Assembly: GCA_009103225.1 (NCBI GenBank)
Contig: RHPI01000772.1
Span: 490,499-554,498 of the forward strand
Direction of reading: 5' to 3'
DNA length: 64,000 nucleotides
Origin: Chlorokybus atmophyticus
Taxonomy: Eukaryota; Plantae; Mesostigma and Chlorokybus algae
The notes below the pieces were generated by a model, which made no database searches, had not been told where the DNA came from, and saw only the letters and a list, made by a program, of their open reading frames with translations. The position numbers and the translations under genes were made by a program. Numbering within the stretch: the stretch's first letter is position 1; each line of letters starts with the position of its first letter. Of this stretch, positions 1-64,000 are shown one piece after another.

Positions 1-261
1 GTACTTCTGTAAGTACTTGAAGTCTATGTGCGACAGCAAGGACAAAAGCGCGTTCTTGCAAGTCGCGACAACCTGCAGACCAGCATAGCTAGTTTGAACA
101 AAGTGCCTGAAGCTCAGGTTACACAGATGAGTCTTACGGAAGATTACGCCACGAGTCACCTCCGCCTCCACCAAGTCAACACGCACTGAGTCACCTCCCA
201 TTGATGGCCGGCTTTTAAATCATCCGCCACCGACGCCCTCTTTGCAGCAAGAGCTATCACA

Positions 262-470
262 CAAGATTTTGAGAAGTGCAGCAGCACCGATGACCACGCG
301 CTAATAGTGTTGTGCAACGGGTGTGACAACGGCATGCACTGCTATTGCCGGGACCCTCCTCTTTGCATGGTCCCAGTGAAGGTTGCTAGTGTGACAACTG
401 TCGCACCCATGGATCATCCTGAGGCGAGAGTGAGTCACTCTCGCTCCAATAGGCCCTCTCAAGAGCGCGG
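262..470 (+). pseudogene. PHD-finger remnant, probably the 3' end of a Ty3/gypsy integrase-PHD polyprotein
   Basis: Translates as EKCSSTDDHALIVLCNGCDNGMHCYCRDPPLCMVP, closely matching the PHD of E2 (CERCGSAGDNALVMLCNGCNKGLHCYCLEPPLDAIP). First Cys and C-terminal WxCxxC are lost. Confidence 0.7.
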
Positions 471-4202: not shown

Positions 4203-5358
4203 CAAGTGGAGATGTGCTTGTAGAGAACTCCTCTTGAAGTTGCCATGATGGTGGATCTACCTGCAGGCTATGGCAGGGCTTTGGTTGAACTCATCATGTT
4301 TGCAGTCCTGTAAGATGTGAACCATGGCCAAGCAAAGTGTGTGAAGAAATGACACCATGACGCCACATGCATGCGCAGACAATTGAGAGTCTATCATCCA
4401 CCCCTGGCGCTCTCAGCACTACTATGGCACTATTACAATGTGCTGCCACACAAGCATTGCATATTGACAAACGAGTGGTGTACATGTGGTCATGCCCAAT
4501 GCGGACTTTGATGTCACAACACTCCATCAGGCGTATGTATGCCTAGTGTTGATAGAAAGAGATCACAAGTACACAACACAGTGTCGCTTGTGTGGGTTTG
4601 TGTTTGCTGTCCCGTCTTCGTGCTAATGCTTGCTTGCTATGCAGTTTGCAGTGGGGCTGCTTGCAGCCATGATTGCGGTCTCACACCTGCTGCTGCTTCG
4701 GTGGTGCTCTTTGCCCTTGCCGTCGCGAGTGCACCTGGCCTAGCCTGCCTCAGGTATGCCCCTCCCCCCCCCCTCCCCCCCATCACGCACACACGGACAC
4801 ACGCGCGCTCTTTTGCATGCATGATAGCATGTACTTTGTGAGGATTTGTTTCTGGAGGCATAATGCTTGTAGGGCAAGGAGGTGACTAGCATGCAACACA
4901 CCGTGTATGCCTTGGTTGCGTACACGGTTGCCTGCAGGCTAAGGCCAGCCTTTAGCGGTTGACATGATGGAACCTGGTTGTCCACTCATCCCCTGCAAAC
5001 ATTTGCATTTGTCAGACCACGCAGATAAATGTGCACGAGGGAGCATGCGCTCACCATCAGCTAATAGAACAGGGCGATGCTGCCGCCCGGGGGGGGAGTC
5101 ACAATGTGCACGGGACGGTTGCCACGAGTGGCAACCCCTGTCGCAGCACACGGCTTGCGCTTGTCTTCATCGCTGCTGCCAGAAACTGCAAGACAAGCGT
5201 CAAGCTCCGCCTTGCCCACCAGCTATGACAATTCCACATACGCCGTTGCATCGCTGCTGTCGAAGTTCAACACGTTCATCGCGCTGAAGAAAAGGTAGTT
5301 TGCGTTGACAATTGTAAATGTAAGAGGGGAGGGTGAGAGCGCATGGTGGAACGCAGAG

Positions 5359-5585: not shown

Positions 5586-8500
5586 GGGGGGGGGGGGGGC
5601 ACAAGGCTTACTCGCTGGAGCTTAGTATGCTATGGCGTCCACTTGCAACCCAAGTGGGCGACTGCTGAGGATGGGCACGGGCCCTTCTCCAAATATGTTG
5701 AACACCGACAGCAGTGGCCCATCACGCACGTAATCAACACAAACAGCCTCTTGTGTACTGTCGTCATCAACCATGTGGTTAGCAGTGCTTATGGATCATA
5801 GTTTGCGTCGGTGCGCGTGCGCGTGCGTGTGTTCACATCTGCACCTTGGTCGAAGGACATAAACCTGACACAAAAATCCCAGCTGCTGGTTGGTAATTGA
5901 GCGCTGATCGGGAGAGATGGCTCCGTAGCTGACCGAGCAGGTTGGATGCGCGCCATATGGATCCTGCCAACCCCACGACACCCTGCGCGGCATCACTGCA
6001 AGCCCCATAATACACAAGCACATGTAAGAGTCTCATCGCATGGCTTGGGCTTAGAAGTTAAAATGATGCAAGGAATGCACGCGCGCGAACGTGCGCATGC
6101 GCGTGCTTGCGTGCGCATGTATGTGTGTGTGTGTGGTGGTGGTGGTGGTGGGTGGGTGGTGGGGTGGTGGTGGGGTGGTGGTGGTGGTGGTGGGGGAGGG
6201 GGCGAGCGTGTGCACATGTGAGTGTATTTATGAATGTGCGTGCGCGCGTGACTGTGTGCGCATTCGCGGGCGTGCATATGTGCGCGCGTGTAAGCCTAAG
6301 CGTGAGCTTGAGGGTGTGTGCGCGTGCGGGTGTGCATGTGCGCAAGCACGCGGTCATCACGGTCGGAGATGAGAGTGGGGACTTCTTCTTAGCAGCCCCA
6401 CCCCCCGTGCCCCTCCGTGGGTGCCCACATTTCCTCTCTCCCAATGCCCGCTTCCCTCCCTGCTGCATTCTAAGGACCTGCTACACAAAAGCAATACTAC
6501 CAGCAGTTGCTCACAAGCATGGTGAATCACACACTTTTTGCATCTGTGCTGTCACACACGCACCTGAGGAATCGACAACAGTGCTGTACAACGCATCCCA
6601 TGTGTATGCATATGGGGGTCTGTAGCCTTCATACTGGTAATCTTCATACACAACCAGGACCACCGCCTCGGGCCAGGTGGCAGTCTGTACGGCAAAATGC
6701 GTGACATACGAGAATCCATCTCCAGCTGGATATTGAGCCGCAAAGTACACGTACTCCTTTCCGCTATCTGCATCACCACAAGAGAGCCATGAGATGTCTG
6801 TACAATGCATTGCGCTCCCTCGCACTCTCCCGAGCAAGCTGTCTCACCATCCACATCAACAGCAAACGTATTGTAGTAAGTGTAGTCAACATTGATAAGA
6901 ACGGGTTGGGCAAAGCGCGAGCTGCGCTGGTAGCGGTCAGGATGCCATGCCGCAGGCTTGCGAAACACCCCCGCGGCGTAATTGGAGCAGTTGCGCCCCC
7001 AAAAGTAAATGTTCTCTGCATGCATTGCATACGCTCAAGGTTCAAGCAGGCATCCTGGCATTGTTTCATATGCGCACCTCTGTGTCTCTCACACACGTAC
7101 CTCCTACGACTTGAAGGTTGCCAGCGTAACCGTAATAGCTACTACCGATAGCTTCCACGCTGTGGGGAGAGTAAGGGTAGGTGCAGGCTTCAAGCACCGT
7201 CACACTACGGCCAGTTGCATCGTTCCAAAAGGCAATCTCCAACCTCCTTCCAAACTCGTCATCATACGCTTGCTTGCCGGCGGGGACGGGCTTGGTGTAG
7301 AATAGCCGCCGCAGCGAGGGTGCAGCGGAGGGAAATGGGCACGTTGGCGATACAGGTGTTTGCGCCGGTGCAAGGCAAAAGTTGCCAAGGGCATAAGTGG
7401 AGGCATCCTGTGGATCGTCCACAGAGGCGAGGCTTGGGGAAGAGTCATAAGGGCCCTGTGGATAGCTTCCTTGCCGGCTTGTGCAGGTAACGTTGTTGCT
7501 GATAGGATACGCTATGGCCGCAGCACTGCATGGCGCTGATGCAGGGACATACACGTCGCAGTGCACTGAGAAGGTCACACTGTGGTAGTCGTTATAATAA
7601 GGCGCCACGGGGGTGTTTTTCGCGCGTTCGACTTGAGCATATTGGTCTGTCATATAGACATTGGGGAAGCTGAATGTGCCATCTGCATTCGTAGTTGTCG
7701 ACTGGCTGGAGTGCAACAACACCGGAGGGTACGCATAGTAATATTCATCCTCGTAATAAACATGGACATACGTTGTGCAATTCAAATGAAAAAGTGTGGA
7801 CATATGGGGAGCCTTGACTCAGTAGGTCCTGGCTCTCACCCACTGCTGAGGGGATTTGCCTGCCCTTAGCACCGAAGCGTACCTCGCCGCGCGAGACGGG
7901 GACTTGGATGCCGCTGTTGCACTTGTCGCAGAACAGTCGTCCAGAAATCACAGCCGTGGCAGCTGCACAACGCATGGGTGAAGTTGTTGTCAGCACCAGA
8001 AAGCGTGCCTAACAACTGGTGCGATACAAGGAGAAAGCCAACACACTGTCATGCAAGAAGAGGAAGCCTCCTCCTCCTTTTTCTCTGAAGACAAGGGAAA
8101 GGAGGGGGGCTCCGAATGTTCATGCTCATGTTTATGTCCATGTTTCATGCATGTCGCCTCTCTTTGTCATGTTGACAGCTGCAACTGGATGAATGCATTG
8201 GGACAGAAGTACTACAACCTTGCCACAATGCTGCCAGAGTGTTGGCCAGACACGCCATCCAGCTTCATCCATTTCTTAAACTGCACTTGTGCATTCACTT
8301 TGCCACCAAACCGGACTGACCAAGACCAGAAGTACGAGGCACGCGCAATGCCTCGCAGTTCTTCTCACCAGCAGTGAGGGGCTGGACGAGCAAAACCAGC
8401 AGCGCCGCCGCCACGCGCATCAGTGCCATGATTGCCTGCGCACTCCCTGTTGTCGTGTCAGAGCCGCAAGGTCCTCCACACACGCTTCTTGCTGAAAGAA

Positions 8501-8614
8501 GTGAGGGGCGAAATGAGTGCGAGCGTGCACACACACGGGCAACTGCAGAGAGCTCACAATCACCACCAAGCACGCAGAGCGGGGGTCAATACGCGCGGAG
8601 CTAGGCACCAGCAG

Positions 8615-8656
<42 letters not shown>

Positions 8657-9000
8657 GCACGGCACTCGCTCTGTAACTACCGACGCACCCGCGCTCTGCT
8701 AGCGGCCCGCAGGCTTCGGGCGTTGCAAGTAGGCAGGCACCGTCGCATCAGCGCCCCTCCAACTCAGCATGCATAGCCGCCGCCGCACGAGCCACAGACC
8801 ACCACCTCCGCACCCTGCGCCCCAAACTCCCTCCAAATCCCCAACTCACCCACCGACCACCACACGACCCGACACTGAGAGAAAGAAAACAATGATGGCG
8901 GCCACGACATGCCCCACGGCACTGCGTACTGTCCAAGGTACATGTTCCAAGGTACGTGTTGTACAACCTACCCCTGCTGTGTTGCATGATATACGCTGGA
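5586..9000. repeat. Left arm of an inverted segmental duplication (partner about 59200-64000)
   Basis: Reverse complement of 60380-64000 aligns by eye across exons, introns and upstream DNA. Homology resumes near 59200-59420 after an AT-rich insertion in the right arm. Confidence 0.9.
5611..8429 (-). pseudogene. Secreted protein with Pollen Ole e 1-like N-terminal domain, copy A; probably truncated or pseudogenised
   Basis: ATG 8429 (MALMRVAAALLVLLVQPLTA, signal-peptide-like). GT-AG exons about 8429-8369, 7962-7883, ~7800-7101, 7015-6848, 6767-6564, 5995-5845, ~5788-5611, collinear with copy B. Relative to B it has a 2-nt and a 13-nt deletion, a TAC>TAA change near 5622, and lacks the normal exon-3 acceptor. 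Confidence 0.7.
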
Positions 9001-13564: not shown

Positions 13565-14328
13565 ATGTGATGGTCATCGCTTGTGTATAGGGAATTCATC
13601 AAAGAAGAAATCAAAACCTGTTTTGTAAGGTGGACCTTGTCATGCCTTACGAGCTCGTGCGTTATGTTGTCGGAACTCTTTGTCCCTAACATGCTATGCA
13701 TCATGAATGTATAGGTATGCGGGTGTAACAGTCACCCTAACCATGGAAACTCACACATTCGCATTCGCAAATGGCAATAAATATGGTACACGCTCTGCTA
13801 CACTGGCTTAGGCGATATGTATGTAACCTGCACATATATAAAGAAATTAACAGGCTGAATGCAAAGTGAATAGATGTATCAATCAAATTGCCAGCATGTG
13901 TGAACTTACACAAGAGAGACACTGACATATGCACACTGAATGATGACAAACAACAACTGATGAAGCTTAGGGATCAATTGCACAATGCAAGCAGTCAAGC
14001 ACAAGTACATACACACACTCAAGCAAAGCCAGCATGCATATGCAAGCACAGAGAGGACCAGACTCATAGTATAGCAGAATAGCTGGGTTACTCCGTTTTC
14101 ACTTGAACACTTGCTGTCTCAGTAAGAAACTACATGTGCATATAATATTTATATGTCCGAGCTTGCAACTCGCTGTTACACTACCGTTAAGCTAAGGACC
14201 TGTAATGCCACGGACGTACTTCTTCCAAAACCTCCCGCTCTTCCTTGCGCCTTTTTAGCTGCGTGCCGAGTTTCCCGCAATCATGTCTGCGGGCTTCCGC
14301 TCTGGTCAGTGCACCATGTTAGCAGCGC

Positions 14329-14825
14329 TGTAACACGTGGGCTCCGGCTAGTAGGCTATGATAGCCAAAGACGTTACCATGAGTGAGGTATGTCACAATT
14401 TATCCCAAATTGTGACAGTCCTCCCAATTTAACCCATGGGTTCCTCATTATCCAATTCAGTACTTATTAGCCCATGTCGCCGTGGTCACGGCCATACCAC
14501 GACCAATCTGCCCGCGGCCTTTTGGATCCGGCCATCCTCACCGCGCGACCGCTCACGCGGCCATACTATGGCCGCGTGGCGCCGAGCCAGTTTGACCTAG
14601 TAGGTCAAACTGGCTCGGCTCGCAGGTTGCGAACCTGCGCCCAGCCTAGGGCAAGCCGCCCCAAATGTTTTTTGCCCTTGGATCTGCCTTGGTCCCCTAC
14701 GGGAATTGAACTTGAGACGTCAAGCTTCGTTACCATTGTAACAAGTGGGCTCCGACCACTAGGCTACGGTAGCAAAAGACACTACCGTGAGTGAGGTCTA
14801 TCACAATATATCCCAAATTGTGACA
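14329..14825 (-). mobile_element. TRIM-like miniature LTR element
   Basis: Direct repeats TGTAACA...TGTGACA at 14329-14417 and 14737-14825 (89 bp). On minus: PBS-like TGGTAACGAAGC after the 5' repeat and GGGAGGA purine tract before the 3' repeat. Flanks AGCGC/GGCGT differ by two transitions. Confidence 0.7.
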
Positions 14826-15913
14826 GGCGTGGCCTTCCTCCGCCTGCCATGTTGTACCGCTGATGCTGTTCCTCGAGATCGACCACTACGCTCGGTATAT
14901 GCTTCTCGCTAACGAGTGTACACTGGCTGTTACAATCAGCCGAGGTCATTCGATATCGAGGTTCCCTCACAAAATAGCTGTCGTGCCTTACGAGCTCGTG
15001 CATTATGATGTTAAAACCCTTCGTTCAAACACGCTATGCATCATAAAAGTATATGTGTGCGGGTGTAACAGTCACCCTGACCATCAAAACTCACACGTTG
15101 GCATTTGCAAATGGCAAAAAGTATGGTACACGCTCTGCTATCTCTGACTTATGCTATATATGTAACCTGCTCATGTGTAAAGGAATCTACAAGCTACCTC
15201 CCTGTAAAAACCACAGGCCCTCCAAGCATTTAAAAATTTCGGTTCTCACTGGTTGTAGGCGGGCTTTCCTTGAAGCAGCTTTGCATCGGTCACAAAACCA
15301 CTTACCATTGGGTACATCAGCCAATGGTTCTAGCAATTAGAAAATGTGCCAACCGTCCTGGCACGCGTCACACAACAGCATCACATTGTCACGATCAATG
15401 CTACCGCATCCTTCGTGGTGGTGACTGCGCAGGGGGCGAAAGGTCTTTGTGCTCGGGTCGTTGCCATCCTCTACCATGGGTAGATAACACAGGGCACAAT
15501 TCTCCATGTGGTCTTTTATGGTAGCACCGGTGCGGTCTACCAATTCAAGCCCGCCCTCTGGTGGGACCTTCTTGACCTTCAAGATTTGCCGACCGGTCCC
15601 CATCTGCAAGGTGTTCTGGGTGGCGCAATGTCGATAGACATTGTCTCCTGCTTTAAACTTGTGGATGCGCGGTTGATGCCACTGCACACACGCTCATACC
15701 GCCCGGTGTCGCGGTGTTGTGCAACTTGCAAGTTGGCCATATCCATGGGCATTAGCCGCCTGAACAGTTCTATGCGTAGACAAAGAGCAGCTAGCATGGT
15801 GGCCGGTGTCTCGATGCTCACCACATGTCCCACCCGCCATCGAACGCGCAAAGGAAGCAAAGGCTCTCTGCCAAATAGAAGAAAGTACGAACTGAGAGCC
15901 CGCAGTGCCTTGT

Positions 15914-17519
15914 CACCAATAGAAATGGCCTCCCAACAGTTCGGCCTTGCCCACAAATCGAGTAGAGATCCAGCTATAACTTAATCAGGGATCCATATGC
16001 AAGCAACATATCCATTTTTGCACTCTTTGCGGCTGCAGCCACAACTTTGTTTGGTATCGAGCTGCCATTAAGGTCAACTAGCTGGTGTGCATTAAGTTTG
16101 GTATCTGTCTTTTTTTGAACTTAATAATAGCCACATCTTAAATTAAATTTTCGTTAGATCATGTATCAAGATTAATCTTAATGCATAATTTAACCAGAAA
16201 TGTTATGGCCGCAATTCGTGGCGAAAAACCAAAAGAGCCACAGTACACATGGTTTTCGTCTCGCCATCGCCGAGTTTCGAACCTGCGCGGCAGGATGTGT
16301 TGGGTTAGATCATGTAAGATTAATCTTAATGCGTGATATAACCAGAAATGTTATGGCCGCAGTTCGTGGCAAAAAACCACAAGAGCCACAGCAAACGGGT
16401 TTTCGTCTCACCATCTTTAAGGTTCGAACCTGCGCGGCAAAACCTGATAGTGTATCAAGCAACATCATAATGACCTAGCAATGGACCAGCTAGACTACGA
16501 CGACACGAGACGCCCTGCGACGCGTTTGTAAAGCATATACAAACTGCTTCAATTGTCTCACGTGCCGCAACGCATGCACCAACAGCTGCTTACAACGGCA
16601 TTATCGGTATATGTATATATATGTATATATACATACATATATATAGTCATACATATAAGTATATGGTTATATATATATATATACCGCGGTATTAATATAT
16701 ATATAGCACTTGTATCAAACAGATAAAGGTAAAGGCGGATTTTACCACTATATAGGTGACTTGGGGAGGGAGACTTTGTTCAACTTACCGTTTGTCCAAT
16801 CACAGCGCGACATTACCGGTTAATGTTTGCATTATGCGCTCTACGTCACCTGCTGGCGCAAGATTGGTTGCGGAGTTCTGGTCAAGTCTTTACGTGTTTA
16901 CCTCATGTGCTACCACAGTTTACCAACGATTATACATGCAAGTTGCAGCCTTCTACTCGCTTGCCCCGCGGCCTGCTACTAGCAGGCCACGGGGCAAGCC
17001 ATGCATAGGCCGCGGGGTTGAACCGGCAATTTGGCAATGATAAGATCATAAAATTATTATGGTTTGTAACAATGGAAAGATCGATCCTAGCGTTCCGAGT
17101 TTGTTAAGTATGAAGTCTTGTACCGTTGTTGGAACTGGTCACAATTTTAAAGATGATGTGTACAGCTTTAGCATGCAACGTGAATGCATTCTAATGTTAT
17201 CGTCGAGTCCTCAATTGTGTTAGGGAAAAGACGCATTGTTAACGAATTGTTCACAACTGTAATTGCGACTTACACAAGTCTTTCTCACGGCCTGAACCCT
17301 TGATTACGTAAACACCGAATCCTGTATATTGGAGATCCGGTACTTACAATCGTCACCGGCGGATTGCCGTTTGTGCCAGGTCGCAATAAAATTCCGGCTG
17401 CAGCTACAACATATGTACGGATCTGTCATAAAATCTACGAAATCCGCAAATAATGTCCGGCCTCGTCTATGACAAAGTTGCGGATTAAACCTTATATGCG
17501 AAACGCATTTCTACCGACA
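15914..17519. mobile_element. Non-autonomous CACTA/EnSpm-like element, copy 2, inserted in the E0 integrase
   Basis: Termini CACCAATAGAAATGG and CATTTCTACCGACA (degenerate TIR) with 3-bp TSD TGT (15911-15913, 17520-17522). Removing it rejoins GYRCTRQ..ALRALSSYFLLFG. Confidence 0.75.
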
Positions 17520-17704
17520 TGTCGCGTGCATCGGTAGCCTAAGGCCAGCCAAGTCCCAGTCGCGGTTGTCGTGTTGTCAACAGTACTTGCATAAGGCCTT
17601 CTTCACGGTCTACACTATACGCTCCGCCAACCCATCCGCTCGCGGATGATTCCACGAGGTGCGCCGGTAGTTAATGTAAGCCTTTGGTAGGAGCTTATTA
17701 AACT

Positions 17705-17935
17705 TGTCGGGTCGGGGGAAGTCAAGGGTCACACTGTTTCGGGCCGCTGCAGGGAAAGTCATGCGTGCTGGTCCTAGTGCTGCAACATGTTATAACCTGC
17801 GGCAAAAGTAAAAGATAACCCAGCTTGTATGGCGAGGAGTGCTTGGTGGAGCTGCTCCACTGTTGCTGAACACGCACATGTGGAGGCGGTGTCTTCCTTA
17901 GTATACATGCTGTGCTGTAGGACACACAGTCAACA
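17705..17935 (-). repeat. E2 repeat A2 (231 bp, 3' terminus)
   Basis: Near-identical to 18524-18754. Confidence 0.9.
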
Positions 17936-18521
17936 AGCCACTACTATAGGTAGTGGCTGTTTACACAGTTCTTTGCATGAGCGGAAAATTTGTTCCATTG
18001 TTAAGTGAGGTGAATGAGCAAGCAACACGTGGATACTATGCCCTGACTGATGACGACAAGCACACTGCAACCCGGCACACCAGGCCCACAGCGATGACAA
18101 GCACGATGCACACGCGAGCATGCACAGGCTCTCACACAGTGAGGGGGTTCTTGATAACCGGGATGGCGTGTTCGTAGTTCAAGTCGTTTCACAAGCTCTT
18201 AGTTTTCTCACTCACAGTGTCACCAACTGATCCGGTGAACAATGTGACCACTTATATAAGTCAAATCATGATTGTTCAGAACATAAGCTAACGGTCATAC
18301 GGAGGCTATTTTCACAGCGATTGTCACTCGATGTAGAACACAACTTATAACTGAACAGTTACGCGCGGTGCCTATGTGGGCTATGGTCGTGAGCTACCTT
18401 AAAGTCATGACCTAGCTACTGGTCAGGGACGCGCGCGCGTTGGTATATCGATAGGCCGGGCGACGGTTTTAATGTAGACATGCCCGATGAAGGCTGGTAT
18501 GTGTGGGCACCAGGCATGACA
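17928..18521 (-). repeat. E2 repeat B2
   Basis: Near-identical to 29817-30408. Confidence 0.9.
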
Positions 18522-18523
18522 GC

Positions 18524-18754
18524 TGTCGGGTCGGGGGAAGTCGAGGGTCACACTGTCTCGGGCCGCTGCAGGGAAAGTCATGCGTGCTGGTCCTGGTGCT
18601 GCAACATGTTGTAACCTACGGCAAAAGTAAAAGATAACTCAGCTTGTATGGCGAGGAGTGCTTGGTGGAGCTGCTCCACTGTTGCTGAACACGGACATGT
18701 GGAGGCGGTGTCTTCCTTAGTATACATGCTGTGCTGTAGAAAACACAGTTAACA
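18524..18754 (-). repeat. E2 repeat A1, preceded on minus by PPT-like AGGGGGGTGGCT
   Basis: TGTTAAC...CCCGACA, directly after the purine tract at 18755-18766. Confidence 0.9.
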
Positions 18755-18839
18755 AGCCACCCCCCTGAGCTTCTGGAGAGGTTCTAGCTTTAGAGCTCAG
18801 CTGCTAACGCAGGTGAGGAGGGCCGTTGGTGCGGCAATC

Positions 18840-19870
18840 GTCGCACCAGTACTTCTCCATGGGTATTGCGTCCAATGGGGGCTCCAGACAGTAGCAATGC
18901 AGGCCCTTGTTACAGCCATTGCAGAGCATCACGAGTGCGTTATCGCCGGCGCTGCCGCAGCGTTCACATCGTGTGCTGCGGGCGGGGCGAGGGTGCTGGA
19001 TGCGCGCGAAGCCTGCTACCTAGGGGAGGTGACATGGCGCGCAGTTCACCATGTTGTCTTTTAACCTCTCGCCATTCTGACCAAGAAGATCCAGCACTCC
19101 TGTGGGGTACACCTTGAGTACCTTGTAGACGGTGCGGCCTACGGAGGTGTCGAGCGTGTCTTTAGTGGCTGTCATGCGGTAGGCAAAGTCACCAACTTGG
19201 AACCGCCGTTGACGCTCCTTGTAGAAGCCGCTTCACACGCGCTCGTAGCGCAGAGTGTCACGGTGCTGTGCAATGCGTATGTTGTGGAAGGCCATCAGGA
19301 CGGTGTGCTCGAAAAGCGTGGCACGTGTGGTGATGTCGTGGTGCATCCAGTCGGGATCGTCGAGGTTGTCCATCACACGGTTTACTTCCTGCTGTGCACG
19401 AAAGGGAAGCAACGGCGGACGCCCAAACAGCAAGTAGTATGGGCTATGCTCGCGCAGCGCCGCCTGCTTCGACAATCGGTAGCCAAGAGCCACCCACGGA
19501 AGGTGGTCGTCCCAGGTGTTCTTCTCATTATCCAGCACGTACTCGCGGAGTGCCTTCTTAATAGTCTGCACCGTCCGCTCGGCGAGACCATCGGCTTAAG
19601 AGTGGTCACGCGAAGTACGGCAATGATCGATGTAGCATCTGTCCAGCAGAGTGTCGAACTCCCCTCTGAACTCAGTGCCCTGGTCGGTGATGACCTCAGC
19701 GCAGCTGCCGAACCGGCTGAGGACATGGGAGAGGAAAGCTTGAGCCACCCCCTTGCTGCTCTTGTCGGGTAATGGCACCAGCTCCACCCATTTGGAGAAG
19801 TGCTCGATCATGATCAGGATGTAGCGGTTGCCCCGCGCCAAGGGTGCCAAGTCTCCCAAGATGTCGAGTC
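18840..19870 (-). pseudogene. pol: E2 integrase core plus C-terminal PHD finger
   Basis: DLAPLARGNRYILIMIEHFSKWVELVP...VITDQGTEFRGEF (rve core), SPYYLLFGRPP, then CERCGSAGDNALVMLCNGCNKGLHCYCLEPPLDAIPMEKYWCDDC (C4HC3 PHD). Confidence 0.9.
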
Positions 19871-19911
19871 CCCAGCGGTAAAACAGCCAGAGATGGGGAG
19901 AGGGTGCAAGG

Positions 19912-21774
19912 TGTTGACATACACACGTGCAAGTGACACGCCAACAACATCAACACAAGAGTATGACTGCTACTGCCGCCATAGCATACGCACACATGCT
20001 ACATCGTGACCTCTGCTCTTCATTGCAACAAGTCTGGGCTTTATACCCCGCCAGTCTCTACACACGTCTACATTGGCAAGCACCGCGTGCGCTATACTCA
20101 GCCGATTGCTGTTCTGTAAGCTACGCTGTGTAGCTCACAACTAGAGCTTTTCAATAAGCTAAGCCACGCCTGCTAAGCTTATGTATCCACGAAGCTACGC
20201 AATTTCTCCCAAGGCTCTACCAAGCAGCCAGGTCCGGAGTCCGTCATGACTCGACCGTCTTGCTAAGTCTGGAGCCCACGCGCTTCTTCCTGGTACCTTC
20301 GACCCTCGACTCCTGTATGAAGGGCAAGCTGACCGGATACAAGCATCACCCATGTAATACCTTCAACACTCCCACGCGGGCAGCTTGTCCTTCAACATCA
20401 GCTCCTCCATTACTCACGCACACCGTTTGCTCTTACGCAAGCCTTTACCTTTTTTTCTCACGCCTCCATGCTTGCAGCTCCCACGGGCTCCGCAATTGCA
20501 ACCTACTTGTGCGTCCTTGTTGCTCATGACCTTGTGGTATCTTGCAACTCCATCATCAACCACCCTTGTCAATGCAGCAACCTTGCGCACACCATGGCCA
20601 TCTTCATGTCCACGTCCACATGCTTCTGCGTATAGCCTCCAAGCTTCACGCCTCCAGGATGCTCCATGTCCAGCTTCCAAGAAATCACGCTTCCAGGATG
20701 CTCATCACGCTTCCTCGCATGCACCTTCAGCCAAGCACTCCACATGCTTCAACCAAAGTACCAAGCACTTTACCGTGCTTCACCAAGGACTGCCCTCGCT
20801 CCCCTTTTCGGAAAGTCCATCAAACACTCCACCGTGCTCGACCTCAAGGGTTGCCATCTGCTCCCCTTCCTTCCACCAAGCACATCAACGTGCTTACCAC
20901 CGGTTGCCTCTCGCATTCCTTTAAGCGCTTCACCACGCTCCACCAAGTATTCCTCGCACTCAGTAACACGAGCTGACATCTTTAGCTCCCACGTATCAAG
21001 GACACCTCCTCTTCCAAGTACTTCATGTACTCTTCTTCAGTCACCAGAAAATCTCCATCATCTCCTCCTCTTGATCCATGTACTTCCGCATCTCTGTGTG
21101 GGCCACTAGTAGCTCCATCTTCACACTCCAAGTGTTGTAGTCGTCAACGTCCGGTAGTCCAATCGCAATCTTCAAGCTGTCCATGTTGGTGGCCTTGGTT
21201 GGTTGCCCTCTCTGCTCACAGACCTCACAACCCCACACTACCACAAAGCAACTACAGCTACATATACAATTGTAACACACTCCATCAACCTACACAAGCA
21301 TGTGTGGGCCCATAACCTGTTGACATACACACGTGCAAGTGACACGCCAACAACATCAACACAAGAGTATGACTGCTACTGCCGCCATAGCATACGCACA
21401 CATGCTACATCGTGACCTCTGCTCTTCATTGCAACAAGTCTGGGCTTTATACCCCGCCAGTCTCTACACACGTCTACATTGGCAAGCACCACGTGCGCTA
21501 TACTGAGCCGATTGCTGTTCTGTAAGCTACGCTGTCTAGCTCACAACTAGAGCTTTTCAATAAGCTAAGCCACGCCTGCTAAGCTTACGTATCCACGAAG
21601 CTACGCGATTTCTCCCAAGGCTCTACTAAGCAGCCTGGTCCGGAGTCCGTCATGACTCGACCGTCTTGCTAAGTCTGGAGCCCACGCGCTTCTTCCTGGT
21701 ACCTTCGACCCTCGACTCCTGTATGAAGGGCAAGCTGACCGGATACAAGCATCACTTATGTAATACCTTCAACA
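19912..21774 (-). mobile_element. Non-autonomous Ty1/copia-derived LTR element inserted in the E2 integrase
   Basis: 457-bp near-identical LTRs at 19912-20368 and 21318-21774 (TG...CA); TSD CAAGG; PBS GGTTATGGGCCC; gag-like start MDSLKIAIGLPDVDDYNTWSVKME; no pol. Confidence 0.9.
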
Positions 21775-21779
21775 CAAGG

Positions 21780-23650
21780 TGGCGCTGCGTGTGTTGAGGC
21801 TGGCACGTACCATATCACACTGCTGGCAGCAATTGACGAACCCCTGCACCTGTTTGGACAGCTCATACCACCAATATTGCGCCCTTACCATGCTGACGGT
21901 ACGCTTGACACAAAAGTGCCCAAGCTCCGTGTGGAGGGCAGCAATGATGCCCTCGCATGTGGCTGGTGTAGGCACCTCTTTGTCCTCTTTCTGGACGCGG
22001 CGGTACACTTTGTCATCCGCCCGCCGGCAGTGGTGGGTGCGCTGACTGACACGATCTTTCTCTCGTGCACTCATGTTGGAGGGAAGCTGGCCACTTTGAA
22101 GGAAGGAGAGTGATGGCTTGTCAAGCCAAATGTCCCGCCTGGTGTCGGTGGGTGCCAGCTCGGTGTCGTCAACTTCAATGTCGATCGCGTGGACGTCCCT
22201 TTGTGGTCACTGTGGGGTCGCTAGCCTCAAGGGCAGGAACCTCCTCTGTCGTTGAGGTGGTGTTGATCTGGCGCCCTGACCATGACGCGGCAGCAGCAAA
22301 CATGGCCGCCATGGTGGGAGCTGCTGCTGCGAGGCCGAGCTTGTGCCGAGCTCCGGTTGCATCGTAGGTACTGCGGTGAGGGTTGCGACTAAGGCCATCA
22401 GTGTTCTGGTTGGTGAGGCCGGCGCGGTGGTCGATCTTGAAGTCATACTCCTGCAGCAACAAGGCCCAGCGAGCAAGTTTACCTGTCAGATGTTGGTTGG
22501 TCATCAACCACTTGAGTGGCTGATATTGGTGATCAGCTGGAATTGTCGACCAAAAAAGAAAGGTCTGAAGAAGGAGATAGCCCATACTGCAGCGAGGCAC
22601 TCCCCTTCGTAGCTGCTGTAGTTGGCCTCATCGCTGTTGTTGCTTCGGCTAGCATATGACGCCACCCGATCCTTCTCGTTCTCATCGTGCTGTACCAGCA
22701 CAGCCCCCATCTCAAGTTTGCTCCAGTCGGTGTGGAGGATGAAGGGCTTGTTGTAGTCAGGACGTTGCACAATGGGAGCGGTGGTGAGCCTGCCCTTTAG
22801 CTCCTCAAACGCCTGCTGTTGTGTCCCCTTTCACACAAAATCCACCTCCTTCTTCAGGAGCTCGTTGAGGGGTCGCGCGATCTTTGCGAAGTCCTTCACG
22901 AACCGGCGATAGTAGTTGGCAAGGCCCCAAAAGGCACGCAGACGCGTAAGGTCTGTGGGAGCAGGGATAGCCGCCCAAGCCTCCACCTTTGCCTGCTGCA
23001 CGTACACACCGTGGGGCACAATCATGTGCCCTAGGTAGGGTACCTTGCGAGTGAAGAAGGTGCACTCGTCGGGGTGCACTGTCATCCCCACCCCCTTGAG
23101 TCTTTCCAGCACTTGCTCGATGTGCTGCAGGTGCTCGTCGTTACTGCGACTGAAGATGAGAATGTCGTCAATGTAGCATCGCGCGGAGTCTAGCTTCTTC
23201 AAGGCTTTATCCATGACGCGCTGGAACTTGGCAGGAGCGTTCTTCAGTCCGAAAGGCATGACCTTCCACTAATACAGCTGCCGGTTGCCCCAGAAAGAGG
23301 TCTTGTGCTTGTCCTCCTCCTTGATGGCGATCTGGTTGTACCCTTGTCGCATATCCAGGATGCTGAAGATGGTGCAGTCTGCAACATCATAAATGATACC
23401 CTCCGCAGTAGGCATTGAATACCTGTCTTGTTTGATATTATTGTTGAGGGGGCGATAGTCGCCGCACATGCGCCGGTCTGTCCAGTTGCCTGCTGAATCC
23501 TTTTTCAGGGGCATGACGGTCGCGGCCGCAAAGTCCGATGTGGACTCCTTAATCAGGCCTGCATCTAGCAGAGCCTTGCACCTCTGCTCCACCAAGTCTT
23601 CTTCTAACTTGGAGACTCGGTACTGTCTTCAAAACACCAGTTCGGTATCC
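21780..23650 (-). pseudogene. pol: E2 reverse transcriptase, RNase H and integrase zinc finger
   Basis: RMCGDYRPLN, MPFGLKNAPAKFQR, CYIDDILIFS, FILHTDWS, YEGECLAAVWA, HTELGHF...CQQC. Contains premature stops and frameshifts. Confidence 0.95.
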
Positions 23651-23959
23651 ATCAACTCGATGTTCATCTGGTAAACTGAGCAAACACCCAGTTCCCTTAC
23701 GCTGAAACTGAACTAACTTCTCCACTTGTTGAGGAGAGCCTCCAATTGTTCTCGCGTCTGGCATGTAGTCAGTGGTCCAATGGCATGGGACCAAGAGGTG
23801 GTGTTGGCGACCACTGGGATGTCCTCCACAGTGACTGGTGCCTGCTCCTCCATATGGGCGATTTCGAGGGCGGTGTGTGTCGCTTTGATCTCTTGCACGC
23901 GATCGGCCCACCCCCCTGCCAGGTGTTCGAGCTATTAAGAAGGACACATGGCGGTCTTG

Positions 23960-24960
23960 GAGAGCAAAGCACATTTCCAATAACCATACCATGCTGTTCT
24001 GATCCATGGCACGTCCCAACAATTGGCATTGCTGACTGTCGGTCAGCGTGGAACCTGTGATACTGCCTAGAGAGAAGCCCATGGGGCGTTCGCGCTCACG
24101 TGCGTTGGGTTCCTCCAGCTGGCCTGTGTTGGAATCCAACACCATGCCTGCGCCGTGGTTGCGAAAGGTGTACGATCCTGGGTAGGACACCAGCGTGGGG
24201 GAGCGCACGACGTGGTTGCCCAGGCTGGTTGCATTGGTAGAAGTGGTGATGATCGCGTCGGGTGACTGGTTGTGCAGTTCAACCAGAGTCCAGTATAGCG
24301 TCGACTATCAGAATGCGTGGACGACTGTTGTGCAGATATTCAGCAGCAAAGAGATCTTCGACTGTTGTCAGGTTGGTCCACTTGGCGCGGACGCGATAAG
24401 CACGGTAGCCATGCCGCGCTGCGTTAATTTCCAAGAGGATGCCCCAGTGAGGAGCACACCGGTCAGAACCTGTTGGTTGCGTGATGGCGCTTATCGTCCT
24501 CTGAGTGCACATTCTCGATGATGTATCTTGGAGGCCTGGACAGCTAGTTGCTCTGCAGAATTCTGATGACACGCATCAGTTCCCAGAACCGTTATGAGCG
24601 AGGATCAGCGAGCCCTTGGCCGCTGCCTGCTCTGGAGTGTCCTTGATACTCCCATCCTGCTATCAGGAGGTCGATGTTGCCCACCGCTTGGAGGTGATCC
24701 GCAGTGATTACACGGATGTCCTATGGCAGTGCCTTCAGACTGCCTTGCAGTGCCGATAGCGGCAATCGCTGCGGGTAGCAATTGTGTAGGTGGCGCAGGT
24801 GGTGGCTCAGGGCAATCTGTGCGTGTGGATCAGGGTCACAATAGAAGTACTTGGTGACCGTCGCGCCAGTGTTGAGAACAGCGGCGAGGCCACTACGTAT
24901 TCCTCCGAATAGTTCGAACACGGTTATGCCTTGTTGTCGCCGGAATACGTAAAACTCCAC
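23960..24960 (-). pseudogene. DNMT3/DRM-like C5-cytosine methyltransferase domain inside E2 pol
   Basis: Motif I TVFELFGGI (24901-24930), IV DLLIAGWEYQGHS (about 24630-24675), VI YIIENV (about 24510), VIII-like RAYRVRAKWTNL, IX/X ERERPMGF...QLLGRAMD (about 24090-24002). In-frame stops present. Confidence 0.85.
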
Positions 24961-25335
24961 TACTCCAGTGGCCACCTGGTGTTGTTCCTGCACAGCAACT
25001 TGGTCCATGTAGAGAGCGAACCATGAAATGAGCCGCGGTGTAGTGAATAGCAGATGTGCGACCACCTGTGCGCGCCAGCGGCGTTCCGCTGGTTGCTGAT
25101 GGGCCACTTCCTCAGTGGCATCTTCCTTAGACTCGTTGTATGGGATAGGAGAGTCTCGGTCCGCGTTGTGGGTGACCACCATAGATGATCTGTCAGTGGT
25201 TGCCGACAACAACCTGTGGGTGGCTGTCGCAGCTGACCTTGGGTGGGAACGAGTGCGGGCCACCAACTCGAGAGGTAGATATCCTTGAACCTCTCCGTCC
25301 TCGTCATCCCAACGAGGACAAAACCAGGCCTTTTC

Positions 25336-25662
25336 CTACCAGCAGTCCAGCCCCATGCCAACAGGGAAGTTGAAGTCATGTCCCAACAACAGGTCAAAGA
25401 ATCCTGCGTCGGTGACCACATAGTTCTGTATGACCTTGGTATTGTGGGACGGGTCCACTCCTGTCAAGCGCATGCAGAGGGCTTGCTTGGTGGTGATACC
25501 CATCACCTTGTCACGGCTGCCGGTTGCGGAGTCGAGCACGTATGGGCACGGCATCAGCTCAACACTGGTGATGCCAAGGTCACATGCGAGGTAACGTCCG
25601 ATGATGACAGGCTGGGCGCCAGAGTCCAGCATCACCCGCTTGGGTGCTTGCCCATTGATCAT
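25336..25662 (-). pseudogene. pol: E2 aspartic protease
   Basis: VMLDSGAQPVIIG active-site motif and FDLLLGHDF. Confidence 0.9.
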
Positions 25663-25699
25663 GACATGCTTGCTTGGTTGGCGATCATGGCCGTATTGG

Positions 25700-27675
25700 C
25701 GTGGATGCGCAGTCGCTTGAATCGTCGGTAGCGTGTGCGTGGGGTGTCTGCTGTTGCAGTCTCCTCCGGTGGTGTCAAGCGCAGTGCGGCAAGCGCCCCT
25801 CGCTCAGCTGGGTTTTGCGCACTTTCTTGACCGCGGCCTGGCCCAAACCGTTCTTGCCTTGGCTGTTGATAAGCACGCTGTGGCCTGGGTGCCGGCGGTG
25901 CTGCCTGCGGCTGTCCTGGTTGTAGCGCCGGGGGATTGCGTCTCTGTGTGGCCGGGGTCATTCCTGGCAGCGTGCCCAGTGGGGAAAAACTAGAGCACCA
26001 GGTGTTTGTGGGCCCGCCTCCCGTGCGGCCTGTTCTTCCACATAAGTTCAGCGCACTGCATGAGCTGCCTCCCTGACCAGTGTACCTTCCCATGTGGCTG
26101 TTGGGTTGTTGATCACGTCACTCCAGCGGTGATTCTGAGGCTTGGGCTGGAAATACACTGCGCGCAGAAGCCGCGCACTTATGTCGTGGGTGATGGTGGG
26201 GACCCTTAGGATCCCTGCCATGTAGGCATCCCATCTGCCATTGACCACTCCAACCTCCAACACCGTTGTTGCTCGCGCCCGCACAGTGAGGTAAATCTCT
26301 GGCTGTTGAACATGCTGCTCGTAGGCAGCTGCGATGCGTCTGCGTTGCCGCGCTGCTTCCACCTCTGGCAACCTCGGTATGGCCTCTTGTACTCCTTCTA
26401 AGGTGTCAGTGGCTGTCGAGGCAACCTCGTCACAGGCTTGCCGTAGTGAATGCAGGAAGGCGCCCAACCAGAACAATCTGGTGCTGAAGGCGAACAGGGG
26501 GACTGCGGGGTGATTGGTGACTAGCCAAGTCACCAGTCTTGCTCGAGCTGCATTACCACCTTCTCGCATCCCCAGCATCCGTCTCAGACCGATGCCTTCT
26601 TGTCGGTGCAGCATGGTTGCTTGTTGCAACAGGGCAGTACGTAGTTGCTATTCCTCAATTGAACATGCTCCATCTCGTTGTGTCCACCCTTGCGGTGTGA
26701 GGTAGCCTCTCCCTGGATCCCGTTGATCTTTAGGCAAGTCTTCCAACAAGGCGGGTAGCAGGGCGATCACCCCCCTGGTTTGTTGGGCCAGCGCCCTCAT
26801 CTGGTCACCATTGGGCCCACCGACAAAAGGTGTTGTACTGGATGATGGGACACGACTGTTGGTTGAAGAACGCCAGCGCGAGGATCGGTAAGGGCGTGCG
26901 CTCTTGCGTCGATTGCCGCCGATTGAATCTGTCGCCAGGTGAATGCATGTTTCAGCGCGGTGTAGCGCTCATGACTTCGAATGGTATTGAGGGGCCTCAG
27001 TGCTTCGTCGTCACCCAAAGGCATGTTGGCTGTATCAGCCATGTGCTGCTGTACGTTGGGTTGCCGGTCCCTATATGTGTCCAGTGGGTTGGGCTAAAAG
27101 GGTTGATGACAGACTGGTGCGGGTTGGCGTGGCGCCATCTGCATATCGTTGTGCAGAGTCCAGAATAACTGCAGTGCCAGCTTCAATACAACAGGCGTTC
27201 TGACAACGAAGACACGGCCTCGCATGGGAGGTGCCATGCCGGCGAGGATTTCATCCTCCAGATGTCGCTGAGTCTGTTCTGGCAGCTTGTGATATTCAGG
27301 CAGTGGGAAGACTCGATCACTGCGTTTAATGCGTGTTGTGCGCTCCCCTCCGCGCCCAAAAGCAATGGTAGTGGGATCTGCCCCACGTATGATGGTCTCC
27401 CAAGCACGCTCAGCTTGCTGACCTCGCAGGACAGCCTGAGTGACGTCGAGGACGGGCAATGTAGCTAAGCGTGTTGCTGCAGCGGCAGCAGGCTCGACAA
27501 TGGCATTGTCGGTGGTGGCGAGAGTGCCGCTCAATGGCGCGAGAGTGGTCTCAAAGCCTGGTGGCACAGGTGATTCTGCGGTTGGAGCGGGACCGGTGCG
27601 ACCTACTGCTGCAGGGTCGGTGACAGCAGTAGCTGTGGCCTGCATGCTCACCAGTGTGGGCGCGATGGCGCTCAC
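25700..27675 (-). pseudogene. Unassigned long coding region between E2 gag and protease
   Basis: Chain of protein-like ORFs (27094-27675, 26797-27042, 26048-26629, 25659-26093), some joined in frame across TAG stops. No family recognised. Confidence 0.55.
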
Positions 27676-29610
27676 TGTAGACTAGTTTCTGGTGAAATTG
27701 GAGCAGTTGCTACTAGCGCTGACGGAGTTGACGTCGTAGCCGGTGTGACCGTTGCGGTTGGTGTAGTACCACTGGTGGCTTCAGAGGAGGTGGCTGCTGA
27801 CGATGTTGCGGCTTCCCCTCGAACTCGCCGGAATGGTTGAATACGCGATGGAGTGCTGGTGTCTCTCGTGCGCTTTGGAGCCACCAGTGCCCACCGGGCA
27901 GAGCAGCAGGCGCCGTAGTCCTGCTCCTTGTCTTCCTCCAAGCGTGCCATACGTGCCATGAGGGCAGCCATATGGTCATCAGCTGGCGGTTGGGCTGGAG
28001 CCTTGGCGGCAACAGCAGCAATGCGCGGACGTTTTTCCAGTCCCTTACGCTGAGGAGGGCGATTCTTCCCCCTGTAGCCTTGCTCTTCCTTGCGAGCATT
28101 GGCGTAGTTGTTTGTGTGGTTATGGCCTCCGGTGTGATTGCTGTTGTAGCCACCAGAGTTGTTGCCGTTGTGGCCTCCAGTGTTGTTGCTGTTGTAGTTG
28201 TTGACGGGTCTCAACTCGGGGAACTTGAGCCAGCAGACTGACCCCAAATGGCCTGTTTTGTGACAGTAGTCGCAGGCCAGAGTTGAGCACTTTTTGGTGC
28301 ACTCCTTTTTGTAGTGCCCATGCCGTCCACAGCAATGACACAGCACAGGGGCAAACAAAGCAGTATGCGCTGACCGTTTCCCTTTGTCGCGTGCTGGTGG
28401 AGCGTCGCGGCCACGTTCGCGGCGCGGAGGCTCGACAGTCGTGCTGGCTATAGGCCGTGAGGCGCTGCGGTTGGTGTCGAGCACTGCTTTCTTATACACC
28501 AAGCGCTTATGGATGGCTTGTGCAGTCTCGAAAGTTTCTTTGAGCGTGTAGCCAAGGGGCCTGCTGTAGTTCAGGGTCAGGCGCGTCGACTCGCTCAGGG
28601 TGGCATCTAACTCATTGACATATACCACTGCAGCCGCCTCATCGCTAACGATCTTGCAGTCAGTGTTCTTCAACAGCCCTTCCGGTCTGGAGTACAGGCG
28701 TAAGGGGTCCTCATTGGGCTTGCGCCGGAACCGCCTCAACTCCTCCACTTTGCTAGTGGTCTGCGGTGGGAAGGTGCGACGAAGTGCAGCGTATAGATCC
28801 TTGAGTGGAGAGTCAGAGATGGCAGCACCTACAGTGATGGCTGGTGCGCGCAGTGCAACTGACCCGAGGGTGAAAGCACTGCCTCCCGCACGAGAGCCAG
28901 GTGTTGCCATAGGTAGGGGCGTGCCCACCTCAACGGCTGCAGTTTGTTGTTTTTCAAGGATGGCAGCAGAACGGTCCAGGCTCCGGGCCCGTCGCGCGGC
29001 CGTCTTGATCTCAAATTCTGCAGGGGTCAAGTTGACGATCACCAACTCCGGTTCCTCCACCTCTGCTCTGTCAATGGCTGCCGCCATGGACACCCCAATA
29101 ACTGCAGCGGGAGTGGCAGGTGGAAAGATGGCTGCTGGACTGGTAGTGATGCAGGTGCTATGGTACTGGCGAGCTCGCCATAACCATCAACTCAATGCGG
29201 TTCAGCAACAGACTTCCAGACATCATGTGCTTCATGGTCAAGATACTGAGCAGCATGTGAAAAGAGATCTCATCTAACCAGTCTTTGTTCTTCAGAGCCT
29301 GCTGTCGCATCTTGGAGTGGAACTTGATGATGAATTCGTTCAGAGAGGTAGTGCCAGCACGTCCGGAGAAGCGCAGGGACGTGGTTGAGCTGGAAGACTC
29401 CATCTCGTAGTCGTCACTATCGGACGAGAGTGGGGAAGCTCGATGCCGTGGAGTGGACAGGAACGGAGTGAAGTCGGAGATAGCACGCGAGCCCCTGCTG
29501 CTACGATCGTTGCTCCCGTCGCTGATCCGCTCGTAGGTGAAGTTGGAGGTTGGGCTCCAGCTGCTGAGGTCACCCTCGTCTATTGGAGAGAACGGGGTGG
29601 GCCTCCTCAT
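27672..29610 (-). pseudogene. gag: E2 gag with two CCHC zinc knuckles
   Basis: FSGRAGTTSLNEF gag-like start; CHCCGRHGHYKKEC and CDYCHKTGHLGSVC. Frameshifted near 29250-29100. Confidence 0.85.
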
Positions 29611-29816
29611 ACAGCTAGTCCAAAGGTGAAAGTGTATGCAGGGTAGAGTGTTTGTGCTCTACCGCCTGTCTCGATGCCGCTACCATTTACCACACTAGTG
29701 CTTGTGCGCACTGTAATGATAGTGATAACGAATGCCCAGGGATGTGTCCCCAGATACAGACTGCACTATCTGATGCAGAATGCAACGCACTCTTGAGCAA
29801 AGAGGGTGACACTGCG

Positions 29817-30408
29817 AGTCAACAAGCCACTACTATAGGTAGTGCTGTTTACACAGCTCTTTGCATGAGCGGAAAATGTGTTACACTGTTAAGTGAGGTG
29901 AATGAGCAAGCAACACGTGGATACTATGCCCTGATTGATGACGACAAGCACACTGCAACCAGGCACACCAGGCCCACAGCGATGACAAGCACGATGCACA
30001 CGCGAGCATGCACAGGCTCTCACACAGTGAGGGGGTTCTTGGTAACCGGGATGGCGTGTTCGTAGTTCAAGTTGTTTCACAAACTCTTAGTTTTCTCACT
30101 CACAGTGTCACCAACTGATTCGGTGAACACTGTGACTACTTATACAAGTCAAGTCATGACTGTTTAGAACATAAGCTAACGGTCATACGAAGGCTATTTC
30201 CACAGCGATTGTCACTCGATGTAGAACACAACTTATAACTGTACAGCTACGCGCGGTGCCTATGTGGGCTATGGTCGTGAGCTACCTTGAAGTCATGACC
30301 TAGCTACTGTCAAGGACGCGCGCGCGTTGGTATGTCAATAGGCCGGGCGATGGTTTTGATGTAGACATGCCCAATGAAGGCTGGTATGTGTGGGCACCAG
30401 GCATGACA
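29817..30408 (-). repeat. E2 repeat B1 (5' terminus)
   Basis: Starts TGTCATGCC on minus; near-identical to 17928-18521. Confidence 0.9.
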
Positions 30409-30412
30409 AACT

Positions 30413-30540
30413 CCCCTTTAAACTCGGTCCCTTTAATTGTAAGGACCTCAGCACATGCCCCAAATTGGCTAAGCACGTTGCAACAAGCTTTTGTGTACTA
30501 TTGTGCGGTGCACAAGGGCAAAACCCTGCTCTCCATGTTG
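30413..30540 (-). pseudogene. Upstream fragment of the E0 integrase core
   Basis: NVLSQFGACAEVLTIKGTEFKGEF, continuing in frame at 17700. Confidence 0.8.
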
Positions 30541-42446: not shown

Positions 42447-42534
42447 GCTGGCCTCGGAGCTTGGACATACGATTTTGAACCACTCAGGCCGTGGTTTGGG
42501 GCCACTTTGATTCGGAAATTAGCGCTTCCGAAGC

Positions 42535-47529: not shown

Positions 47530-47688
47530 AGTCCAGGAAGGTCCATTTCTGAAGATATATATTTTCCGCCTTTAGAAGTAGTTCCACGTTTTGACCTATC
47601 AAGTTACTGGTCATGGCTTGTCTTCCTAGGTTGGAAAGCGTGGAGAAAGAAATTGAGCAGAGACGCTCAATAACTAAAGGGGGAGCAT

Positions 47689-60846: not shown

Positions 60847-60925
<79 letters not shown>
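60847..60925. repeat. (TC)n microsatellite; orthologous to the (AG)n at about 8620-8655
   Basis: Seen directly. Confidence 0.97.
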
Positions 60926-60931
<6 letters not shown>

Positions 60932-63974: not shown

Positions 63975-64000
63975 GTAAGCCTTGTGCCCCCCCCCCCCCC

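Follow-up and report, generated by a model that had tools for sequence, protein, structure and literature searches.

A decayed Ty3/Gypsy remnant in Chlorokybus atmophyticus and the permuted repeats and junction palindrome of its relatives

A degraded element at the locus

The window analyzed here, a stretch of 64,000 nucleotides from a Chlorokybus atmophyticus contig (RHPI01000772.1), holds two related retrotransposons, one inserted into the other (Table 1). On the evidence of its sequence, the outer one, E0, is what remains, in decayed form, of the 3′ end of an old Ty3/Gypsy copy with a PHD-finger integrase; it is a degraded witness, which belongs to an older family, distinct from that of E2, the complete element nested within it. 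The parts of E0 follow one another on the minus strand in the order proposed by an earlier, sequence-only reading of this DNA: PHD finger, purine tract, repeat A1, the dinucleotide GC, repeat B2, and repeat A2, each at or near the place assigned to it there. Both A copies claimed in that reading are present but had been drawn 5 bases too short: A1 runs from 15196 and A2 from about 13857. B2 does start with TATTTT at 14976 and does contain a TRIM, and the second A, which had been described as diverged, is 83.9% identical to A1 over 217 aligned columns (23 transitions, 12 transversions; K2P distance 0.185); the self-BLAST match between the two A copies (E = 4e-56) indicates that their likeness is not due to chance. 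B2 is so called from its position, the window holding no B1; a TATAAA lies at about 14153 within it. The purine tract, AGGGAGG, is likely a decayed A-G6.

Upstream of the repeats, the E0 integrase survives in three decayed pieces that are 36-71% identical to the rve integrase of E2 and are separated by E2 and by a dispersed repeat; the piece that carries the PHD finger is frameshifted and has stops. Self-BLAST, tblastn, and a search with word size 7 found no E0 B1, reverse transcriptase (RT), or gag in the window. At the 3′ end, a candidate half of a target duplication adjoins A2, and the other half falls outside the window.

The TRIM within B2 has 89-bp LTRs that are about 85% alike, a decayed 5-bp duplication (ACGCC/GCGCT), a PBS-like TGGTAAC..., and a purine tract; a near-perfect inverted repeat occupies positions 14554-14619 of its interior. 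Its summed contig depth is 25-51 (runs X2, X1) versus 1-5 in the adjacent bins. Over the E0 repeat bins, summed depth in the X1 and X2 contigs is 0-2 versus about 100-290 over much of E2; these contigs yielded no E0-family copies, a lack of cover that is uninformative on their existence. No relatives of the E0 repeats occur among all 97 loci fetched from related elements (see below); a 23-base pattern from the E0 A end has 0 matches in viral contigs, and a protein scan of viral contigs gave 41 candidates, none of which was confirmed.

Table 1. Positions of E0, E2, and their parts in the window
Feature	Position	Strand	Remarks
E0 integrase, piece upstream of the E2 insertion	30408..30479	-	tblastn with E2 integrase, 71% over 24 aa, E 8e-7
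E0 integrase core, downstream of the E2 insertion	17520..17705	-	best tblastn E with homologues 7e-14
E0 integrase C-terminal part and PHD finger	15277..15908	-	tblastn E 8.5e-38
E0 PHD finger	15408-15283	-	Pfam PF00628, E 3.8e-7
E0 polypurine tract AGGGAGG	15197..15203	-	from sequence; a G-run precedes A in E2 and relatives
E0 repeat A1	14979..15196	-	...GGCACGACA, GACA end; starts directly after the purine tract
E0 GC spacer	14978-14977	-	from sequence
E0 junction GACA-GC-TATT	14973..14982	-	two transitions off the lineage palindrome GACAGCTGTC
E0 repeat B2	13858..14976	-	from sequence; 1119 bp in all, about 617 bp once the TRIM is subtracted
TRIM in E0 B2	14329..14825	-	LTRs 14825-14737 and 14417-14329, TG...CA
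E0 repeat A2	13638..13857	-	...GGCATGACA, GACA end = element 3′ end; 83.9% identical to A1
ACCT, candidate half of a 4-bp target duplication	13634..13637	+	sequence only; reads AGGT on the minus strand
E2, complete element	17705..30408	-	inserted in the E0 integrase
E2 repeat B1	30408-29817	-	
E2 predicted self-priming pair, 15 bp	29805..30112	-	30112-30098 complementary to 29819-29805
E2 repeat A1	18759-18524	-	preceded by a purine tract, followed by GC
E2 exact palindrome GACAGCTGTC	18518..18527	.	sole exact match in the window
E2 repeat B2	18521-17928	-	594 bp
E2 repeat A2	17941-17705	-	237 bp

The element nested within E0

E2 has the coding order gag-PR-DNMT-RT-RH-INT-PHD. Its pol contains Asp_protease_2, RVT_1, RT_RNaseH, and rve in succession, which is the Ty3/Gypsy order; the rve match (PF00665) is above the cut-off, and Ty3 Gag-Pol matches at E 2e-8. 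A C5 cytosine methyltransferase stretch (24960-24481, minus strand; PF00145, DNA_methylase, E 3e-6) lies between the protease and RT. No recombinase family was found in the stretches of E2 scanned, with 25.8-27.6 kb lying outside them. E2 ends in TGTC...GACA and is flanked by the duplication AGTT (30412-30409 and 17704-17701). The divergence of its A pair (0.044) and of its B pair (0.047) is alike and is about one quarter of the E0 value, in agreement with the nesting of E2 in E0.

Among the run contigs, the E2 repeats have many diverged copies, and two contigs cross the purine tract into the A start; a loose end at the E2 palindrome (see below) was not seen among the matches listed, and the contigs thus neither support nor refute the ends. 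A 1.9-kb LTR element without pol (19912-21775; LTRs 98% alike, duplication CCTTG) sits inside the E2 integrase; X1 and X2 contigs skip this insert.

Is E0 an independent second example of the same architecture, as the sequence-only reading had it? The layout and the GC spacer are indeed the same, A1-GC-B2-A2 in both elements, with net lengths of 617 (E0) versus 594 (E2) for B and 218 versus 237 for A. The repeats themselves are unrelated, as that reading claimed: the score between the A repeats is reached by 207 of 300 shuffles, and that between the B repeats by 40 of 300. E0 does, then, represent a separate family, but not an independent origin. The integrase-PHD regions of E0 and E2 are 39% identical over 133 residues (a value as low as the 31-43% identity of E0 to other families), and the two elements are sisters in the tree (97/91 support), a grouping with long branches that the tree program flagged as possibly false; this identity and placement argue for shared descent rather than a second origin.

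Other elements in the window

An ordinary chromovirus (41082-49058, plus strand; gag-PR-RT-RH-INT-chromodomain) has 1.4-kb LTRs that are 92% alike, TG...CA ends, and a 5-bp duplication, GTTGT. Because this element is found in the same window, the odd layout of E0 and E2 is not a property of the assembly. A third PHD-finger remnant (223-408, plus strand) is 54% identical to the E2 PHD over 37 aa; no A/B repeats follow it in self-BLAST, and a near-palindrome at 393-402 falls within a PHD-coding stretch and is attributed to chance.

Dispersed non-coding repeats, 73-90% alike, occupy 1262-1898, 3981-4222, 15909-17515, 30545-31795, and 53500-53752; two of the copies flank the E2-bearing part of the E0 integrase. 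Strongly skewed purine/pyrimidine tandem tracts occur in 32000-41000, and a minus-strand stretch at about 40.6-41.0 kb resembles, by eye, the end of a PIF1/Helitron helicase. A gene-like region is duplicated in inverse orientation (5586-8788 and 60443-64000), the two copies being mostly 87-91% identical.

A family of families

Relatives were sought with the E2 integrase-PHD, which has 235 homologues, 34 of which were aligned as the basis for fetching loci; the hosts named are Klebsormidium, Calypogeia, Marchantia, Sphagnum, and, by gene label, Chromochloris. The 97 loci comprise 80 of 474 confirmed metagenome loci and 17 genome-bin loci. Analysis covered 86 of them, sorted into 21 nucleotide families; L087-L097, partial integrase matches at 28-38%, are left out of all counts. 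L081-L086 are eukaryote-type retrotransposon loci within records titled as bacterial or archaeal bins, a placement that is likely to be binning contamination.

Four separate families carry the full A-GC-B-A tail: those of E0 and of E2, family 0, and family 3 (L082). In family 0, which has 55 loci, 27 carry A-GC-B-A after the G-run, 19 have a single A and then stop, and the remaining 9 are truncated or lack a visible A. A G-run lies directly before A1 in E0, E2, and their relatives, where the purine tract of a Ty3/Gypsy element is expected. Ten families display only the G-run and the palindrome described below, with neither A2 nor B1 visible, which is likely to reflect the collapse of young repeats in short-read assembly. 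Copies that begin with B, end with A, and have 4-bp duplications are known from E2 and family 0; ordinary identical LTRs at both ends were seen in no family, the contigs showing both ends for few of them. Terminal 100% overlaps in L019 and L081 were considered as LTRs and dropped, being taken as assembler circles. L053 has a family-0-type G-run, A, a variant of the palindrome, B, and A about 2200-2870 bases past its family-1 integrase match; this arrangement may be a nested neighbor or a chimera.

A palindrome at the A1/B2 junction

What is the GC spacer? It is the center of a 10-bp palindrome, GACA-GC-TGTC (GACAGCTGTC), exact in E2 and slightly altered in E0. The sequence-only reading guessed that the TATT of E0 came from TGT, and the palindrome supplies the context for this guess: with the junction only two transitions away, TATT is most likely a decayed TGTC. 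One of these changes, G8-to-A, is also present in 6 of 27 family-0 junctions. Matches to the motif with 2 mismatches are not above chance in the window (21 versus 30 expected); the E0 near-palindrome carries weight because its position coincides exactly with the end of A1. Among the 27 family-0 junctions picked by script, 26 have a 2-nt spacer, as does, by eye, the 27th, which had been mis-picked.

The exact palindrome has a strong positional preference. Within 4 kb of the integrase matches, there are 18 hits in 221,435 downstream bases and 0 in 231,908 upstream bases. It is present in 12 of the 21 families, or 12 of the 18 for which 1 kb or more of downstream sequence is available, and is absent within 4 kb in the other 6 informative families; 29 control palindromes of the same composition matched 0-1 family each. 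Together with the tail found in four families, this spread sustains the earlier claim that the layout is a heritable feature of the lineage and not a one-off rearrangement, and A-GC-B-A as a lineage trait is supported.

Could the A-B-A of E0 nevertheless be a local accident, such as a tandem duplication or a nested solo LTR, unrelated to insertion? The B1 and the duplication of E0 are out of sight, and its junction departs from the palindrome at two positions, as such an accident would allow. Against it, the near-palindrome falls exactly at the end of A1, A1 begins at the purine tract, the net B and A lengths match those of E2, and three other families have their repeats in this same order; we regard an accident as very improbable.

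A predicted self-priming site

Complementarity at the boundary of B is, as far as sequence can tell, a signature of Tf1-type self-priming. In E2, the predicted site at 30112-30098 lies 32 nt after a TATAAG, its partner is at the B1 boundary, and 0 of 100 shuffles are as good. Of 13 B copies, 10 have a best stem to the B boundary that begins 26-35 nt past a TATA-like box, and in 8 of the 13 the stem beats all 100 shuffles; in the other 3, the best stem is a different one, and the repeats may be collapsed in the contigs from which the two family-3 cases were taken. The pairing is kept in E2, family 0, and family 3 despite three unrelated sequences, and matching changes between L081 and L005 preserve it. 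The end of E0 B2 gives no pairing signal (99 of 100 shuffles are as good), as expected from the loss to view of B1 and its flank. A tRNA primer site after E2 B1 was also considered and was dropped after comparison by eye with tRNA ends.

Element ends and a variable joint

TG...CA ends with a target duplication in the range of 4-6 bp are found in E2 and, with three or four of four bases matching, in 6 of the 8 distinct two-A copies of family 0 in which both ends are visible. Among these 8, the 4-bp duplication is perfect in 3, has one mismatch in 3, is ambiguous in 1, and is absent in 1 (the ends of L069 and L050 were read by eye). Only the 3′ CA can be seen in E0. In E2 as in family 0, B comes first and B-A last; since the inserted copies do not have two identical LTRs, these elements are a variant rather than typical members of Ty3/Gypsy. 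A starts right after the G-run without a conserved TG and so does not qualify as an integrase end at that point.

The A1-GC-B2 junction is fixed, whereas at least 7 different forms of the joint between B2 and A2 occur among 20 distinct copies (the 27 two-A loci of family 0 minus 4 duplicate and 3 partial loci); a further copy, L007, has lost most of B at this joint. Within a copy, A1 and A2 are closer to each other than they are between copies (p 5e-5). The variation of the joint and the likeness of A1 and A2 could come in part from subfamilies, gene conversion, or short-read assembly.

Three single-A loci of family 0 have a visible 5′ end, and a clean 4-bp duplication is seen only in L038 (ATGG/ATGG); the flanks of L001, also with a single A, have no 4-bp duplication, and its right end is apparently a few bases past GACA. 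The single-A copies could be insertions of 1-LTR circles, recombinants between A1 and A2, or products of assembly collapse.

A probable route from permuted repeats to insertion

If inserted copies do not have two identical LTRs, how might such an element be copied? In LTR elements, plus-strand DNA begins at the purine tract; as the tract adjoins A1, plus-strand DNA should begin at A. The purine tract, the priming site, and the fixed versus variable joints indicate that a permuted repeat undergoes ordinary LTR reverse transcription. As deduced from decayed or assembled DNA, the full mechanism that we consider probable is that the ends of a two-LTR cDNA, in which the LTR is A-GC-B, are joined and that integrase then opens the upstream palindrome. 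In B1, transcription would start about 30 nt past the TATA box, and the resulting RNA would prime the minus strand with its 5′ end in a Tf1-like manner. The minus strand would then jump to B2, and the plus strand would begin at the purine tract, yielding A-GC-B-internal-A-GC-B; it is this cDNA alone that is predicted to have two identical LTRs. The end of B would be joined to the start of A by end-joining or microhomology, either in a 2-LTR circle or during post-insertion repair. The DDE integrase would cut after CA on each strand of one palindrome and insert the element with a 4-bp stagger; the GC would stand for the two bases that retroviral integrases remove. Opening of the upstream palindrome would generate B-internal-A-GC-B-A with a 4-bp duplication, and the next cycle would require only B1 and A1-GC-B2, with A2 supplying the right-hand end.

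The mirror form, B-A-GC-B-coding-A, was found in 0 of the 11 distinct copies with a visible 5′ end (10 from family 0 plus E2). A free symmetric circle is therefore unlikely, and the mechanism has to include a bias, as yet unexplained, toward the upstream palindrome. Speculatively, this bias could arise if the upstream LTR were the first to become double-stranded and the first to be bound.

The joining step could also be different: A2 might be added when RT jumps between templates a third time, moving from the end of B to the start of A, without host end-joining. The joint has shared sequence of 14 nt in E2 and about 5-7 nt in family 3, as a jump, like joining by microhomology, would leave; a jump is also imprecise and, if coupled to integrase loading, could account for the missing mirror form. 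The joints of family 0, by contrast, share 0-3 nt, have deletions and a few untemplated bases, and resemble end-joining; we consider the jump unlikely. Its product would still have to be opened at the palindrome, so it differs from the end-joined intermediate, which we prefer, in the joining step only.

Relation to known systems

A split-repeat Gypsy element is already in print. The legend to Fig. 4c of de Mendoza et al. (2018; PMC5890265) describes KnitGypsy-Dnmt3 of Klebsormidium nitens as having Gypsy domains and the repeats of DIRS elements, whose structure is given in Fig. 1e as A-coding-B-A-B. The elements described here are similar: DIRS-type split repeats are found on a Gypsy element, complete in E2 and as three 3′ repeats in E0, and the pol of E2 includes a cytosine methyltransferase, a likeness that does not imply the same subfamily. 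In contrast to the present lineage, passages of that article on KnitGypsy-Dnmt3 report neither a palindrome or an end sequence nor a target duplication, a priming site, or a mechanism; its main text does not use the word PHD. The best homologue of the E2 integrase-PHD is K. nitens P0005 (E 9e-137), which falls among the lineage families in a tree without an outgroup; its identity with KnitGypsy-Dnmt3 is not implied. A search of the literature other than subscription papers, theses, and Repbase reports found no published account of the palindrome, the priming, or the integration route.

PAT and Ngaro elements, as outlined in PMC7192593, also have split direct repeats; three of these repeats lie side by side at the 3′ end, and an internal junction among them mirrors the element ends. 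They encode a tyrosine recombinase, in contrast to the rve/DDE integrase of E2 and E0, and differ from the lineage, on that outline, in its TG...CA ends, 4-bp duplications, purine tract, and self-priming site. Could the lineage nonetheless replicate in the manner of PAT and Ngaro, with RNA that runs through A2, the joint inherited on this RNA, and a unit-length circle rebuilt on the A-GC-B junction and inserted? The repeat order is the same as described for these split direct repeats (PMC7192593, PMC5890265), and the commonest family-0 joint is shared by 8 of the 20 copies, as inheritance on RNA would allow. Yet the joint differs between copies, the purine tract before A1 and the self-priming site after B1 are ordinary signals of LTR reverse transcription, and the elements have an rve integrase and 4-bp duplications; this route appears improbable, and an end-joined two-LTR cDNA remains our preferred reading.

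The predicted self-priming site of E2, family 0, and family 3 recalls that of the chromoviruses Tf1/sushi and Tcn1, whose primer site is described as complementary to the 5′ end of their own RNA and not to a tRNA (PMC4600332, PMC6317226). Unlike these elements as described there, E0 and E2 have a PHD finger and no chromodomain (the same scan found Chromo in the window at 46021-47529), and the repeats are permuted instead of forming two identical LTRs. Gypsy-7a_cRei, an active Gypsy element of the alga Chlamydomonas reinhardtii, likewise has a PHD finger and an LTR drawn in subparts; according to the legend to Fig. 6A, the right LTR ends in 8 bp that are absent from the left one (PMC9940879).

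The closest parallels to the proposed cutting step come from retroviruses. Foamy virus integrase is reported to cleave a palindromic LTR-LTR junction (PMC1180852); for HIV-1, cleavage of a palindromic LTR junction by integrase has been reported, and 2-LTR circles can feed integration (PMC4372172). The lineage has in common with these systems a retroviral-type integrase and a palindromic CA/TG junction, the cutting of which is here only proposed. In foamy virus and HIV-1, as these reports present them, the palindrome is made by ligation of cDNA ends and belongs to a side route; in the present lineage, the LTR itself carries the palindrome as a templated sequence, on which all complete copies end.

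Implications

The contribution of E0 is that the layout was already present in an old, separate family before E2 inserted. For the lineage as a whole, we lean, a little less firmly than for the mechanism itself, toward a widespread green-lineage Gypsy clade in which the integrase sites have moved from the cDNA ends to a templated LTR palindrome, so that the element would always insert, by means of a DDE integrase, from an end-joined intermediate resembling a 2-LTR circle, in convergence with the split repeats of PAT and Ngaro. Tools that demand two identical LTRs are likely to miss such elements or to set their bounds wrongly. It is, as these reports frame it, a long-standing question if a joined LTR junction can serve a retroviral-type integrase as its normal substrate (PMC1180852, PMC4372172). 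If the proposed mechanism is true, this clade would represent a natural, obligate form of a joined-LTR integration route that is disputed for retroviruses, and the internal 10-bp palindrome that ends every complete copy would provide a defined substrate, together with its enzyme, for addressing that question.
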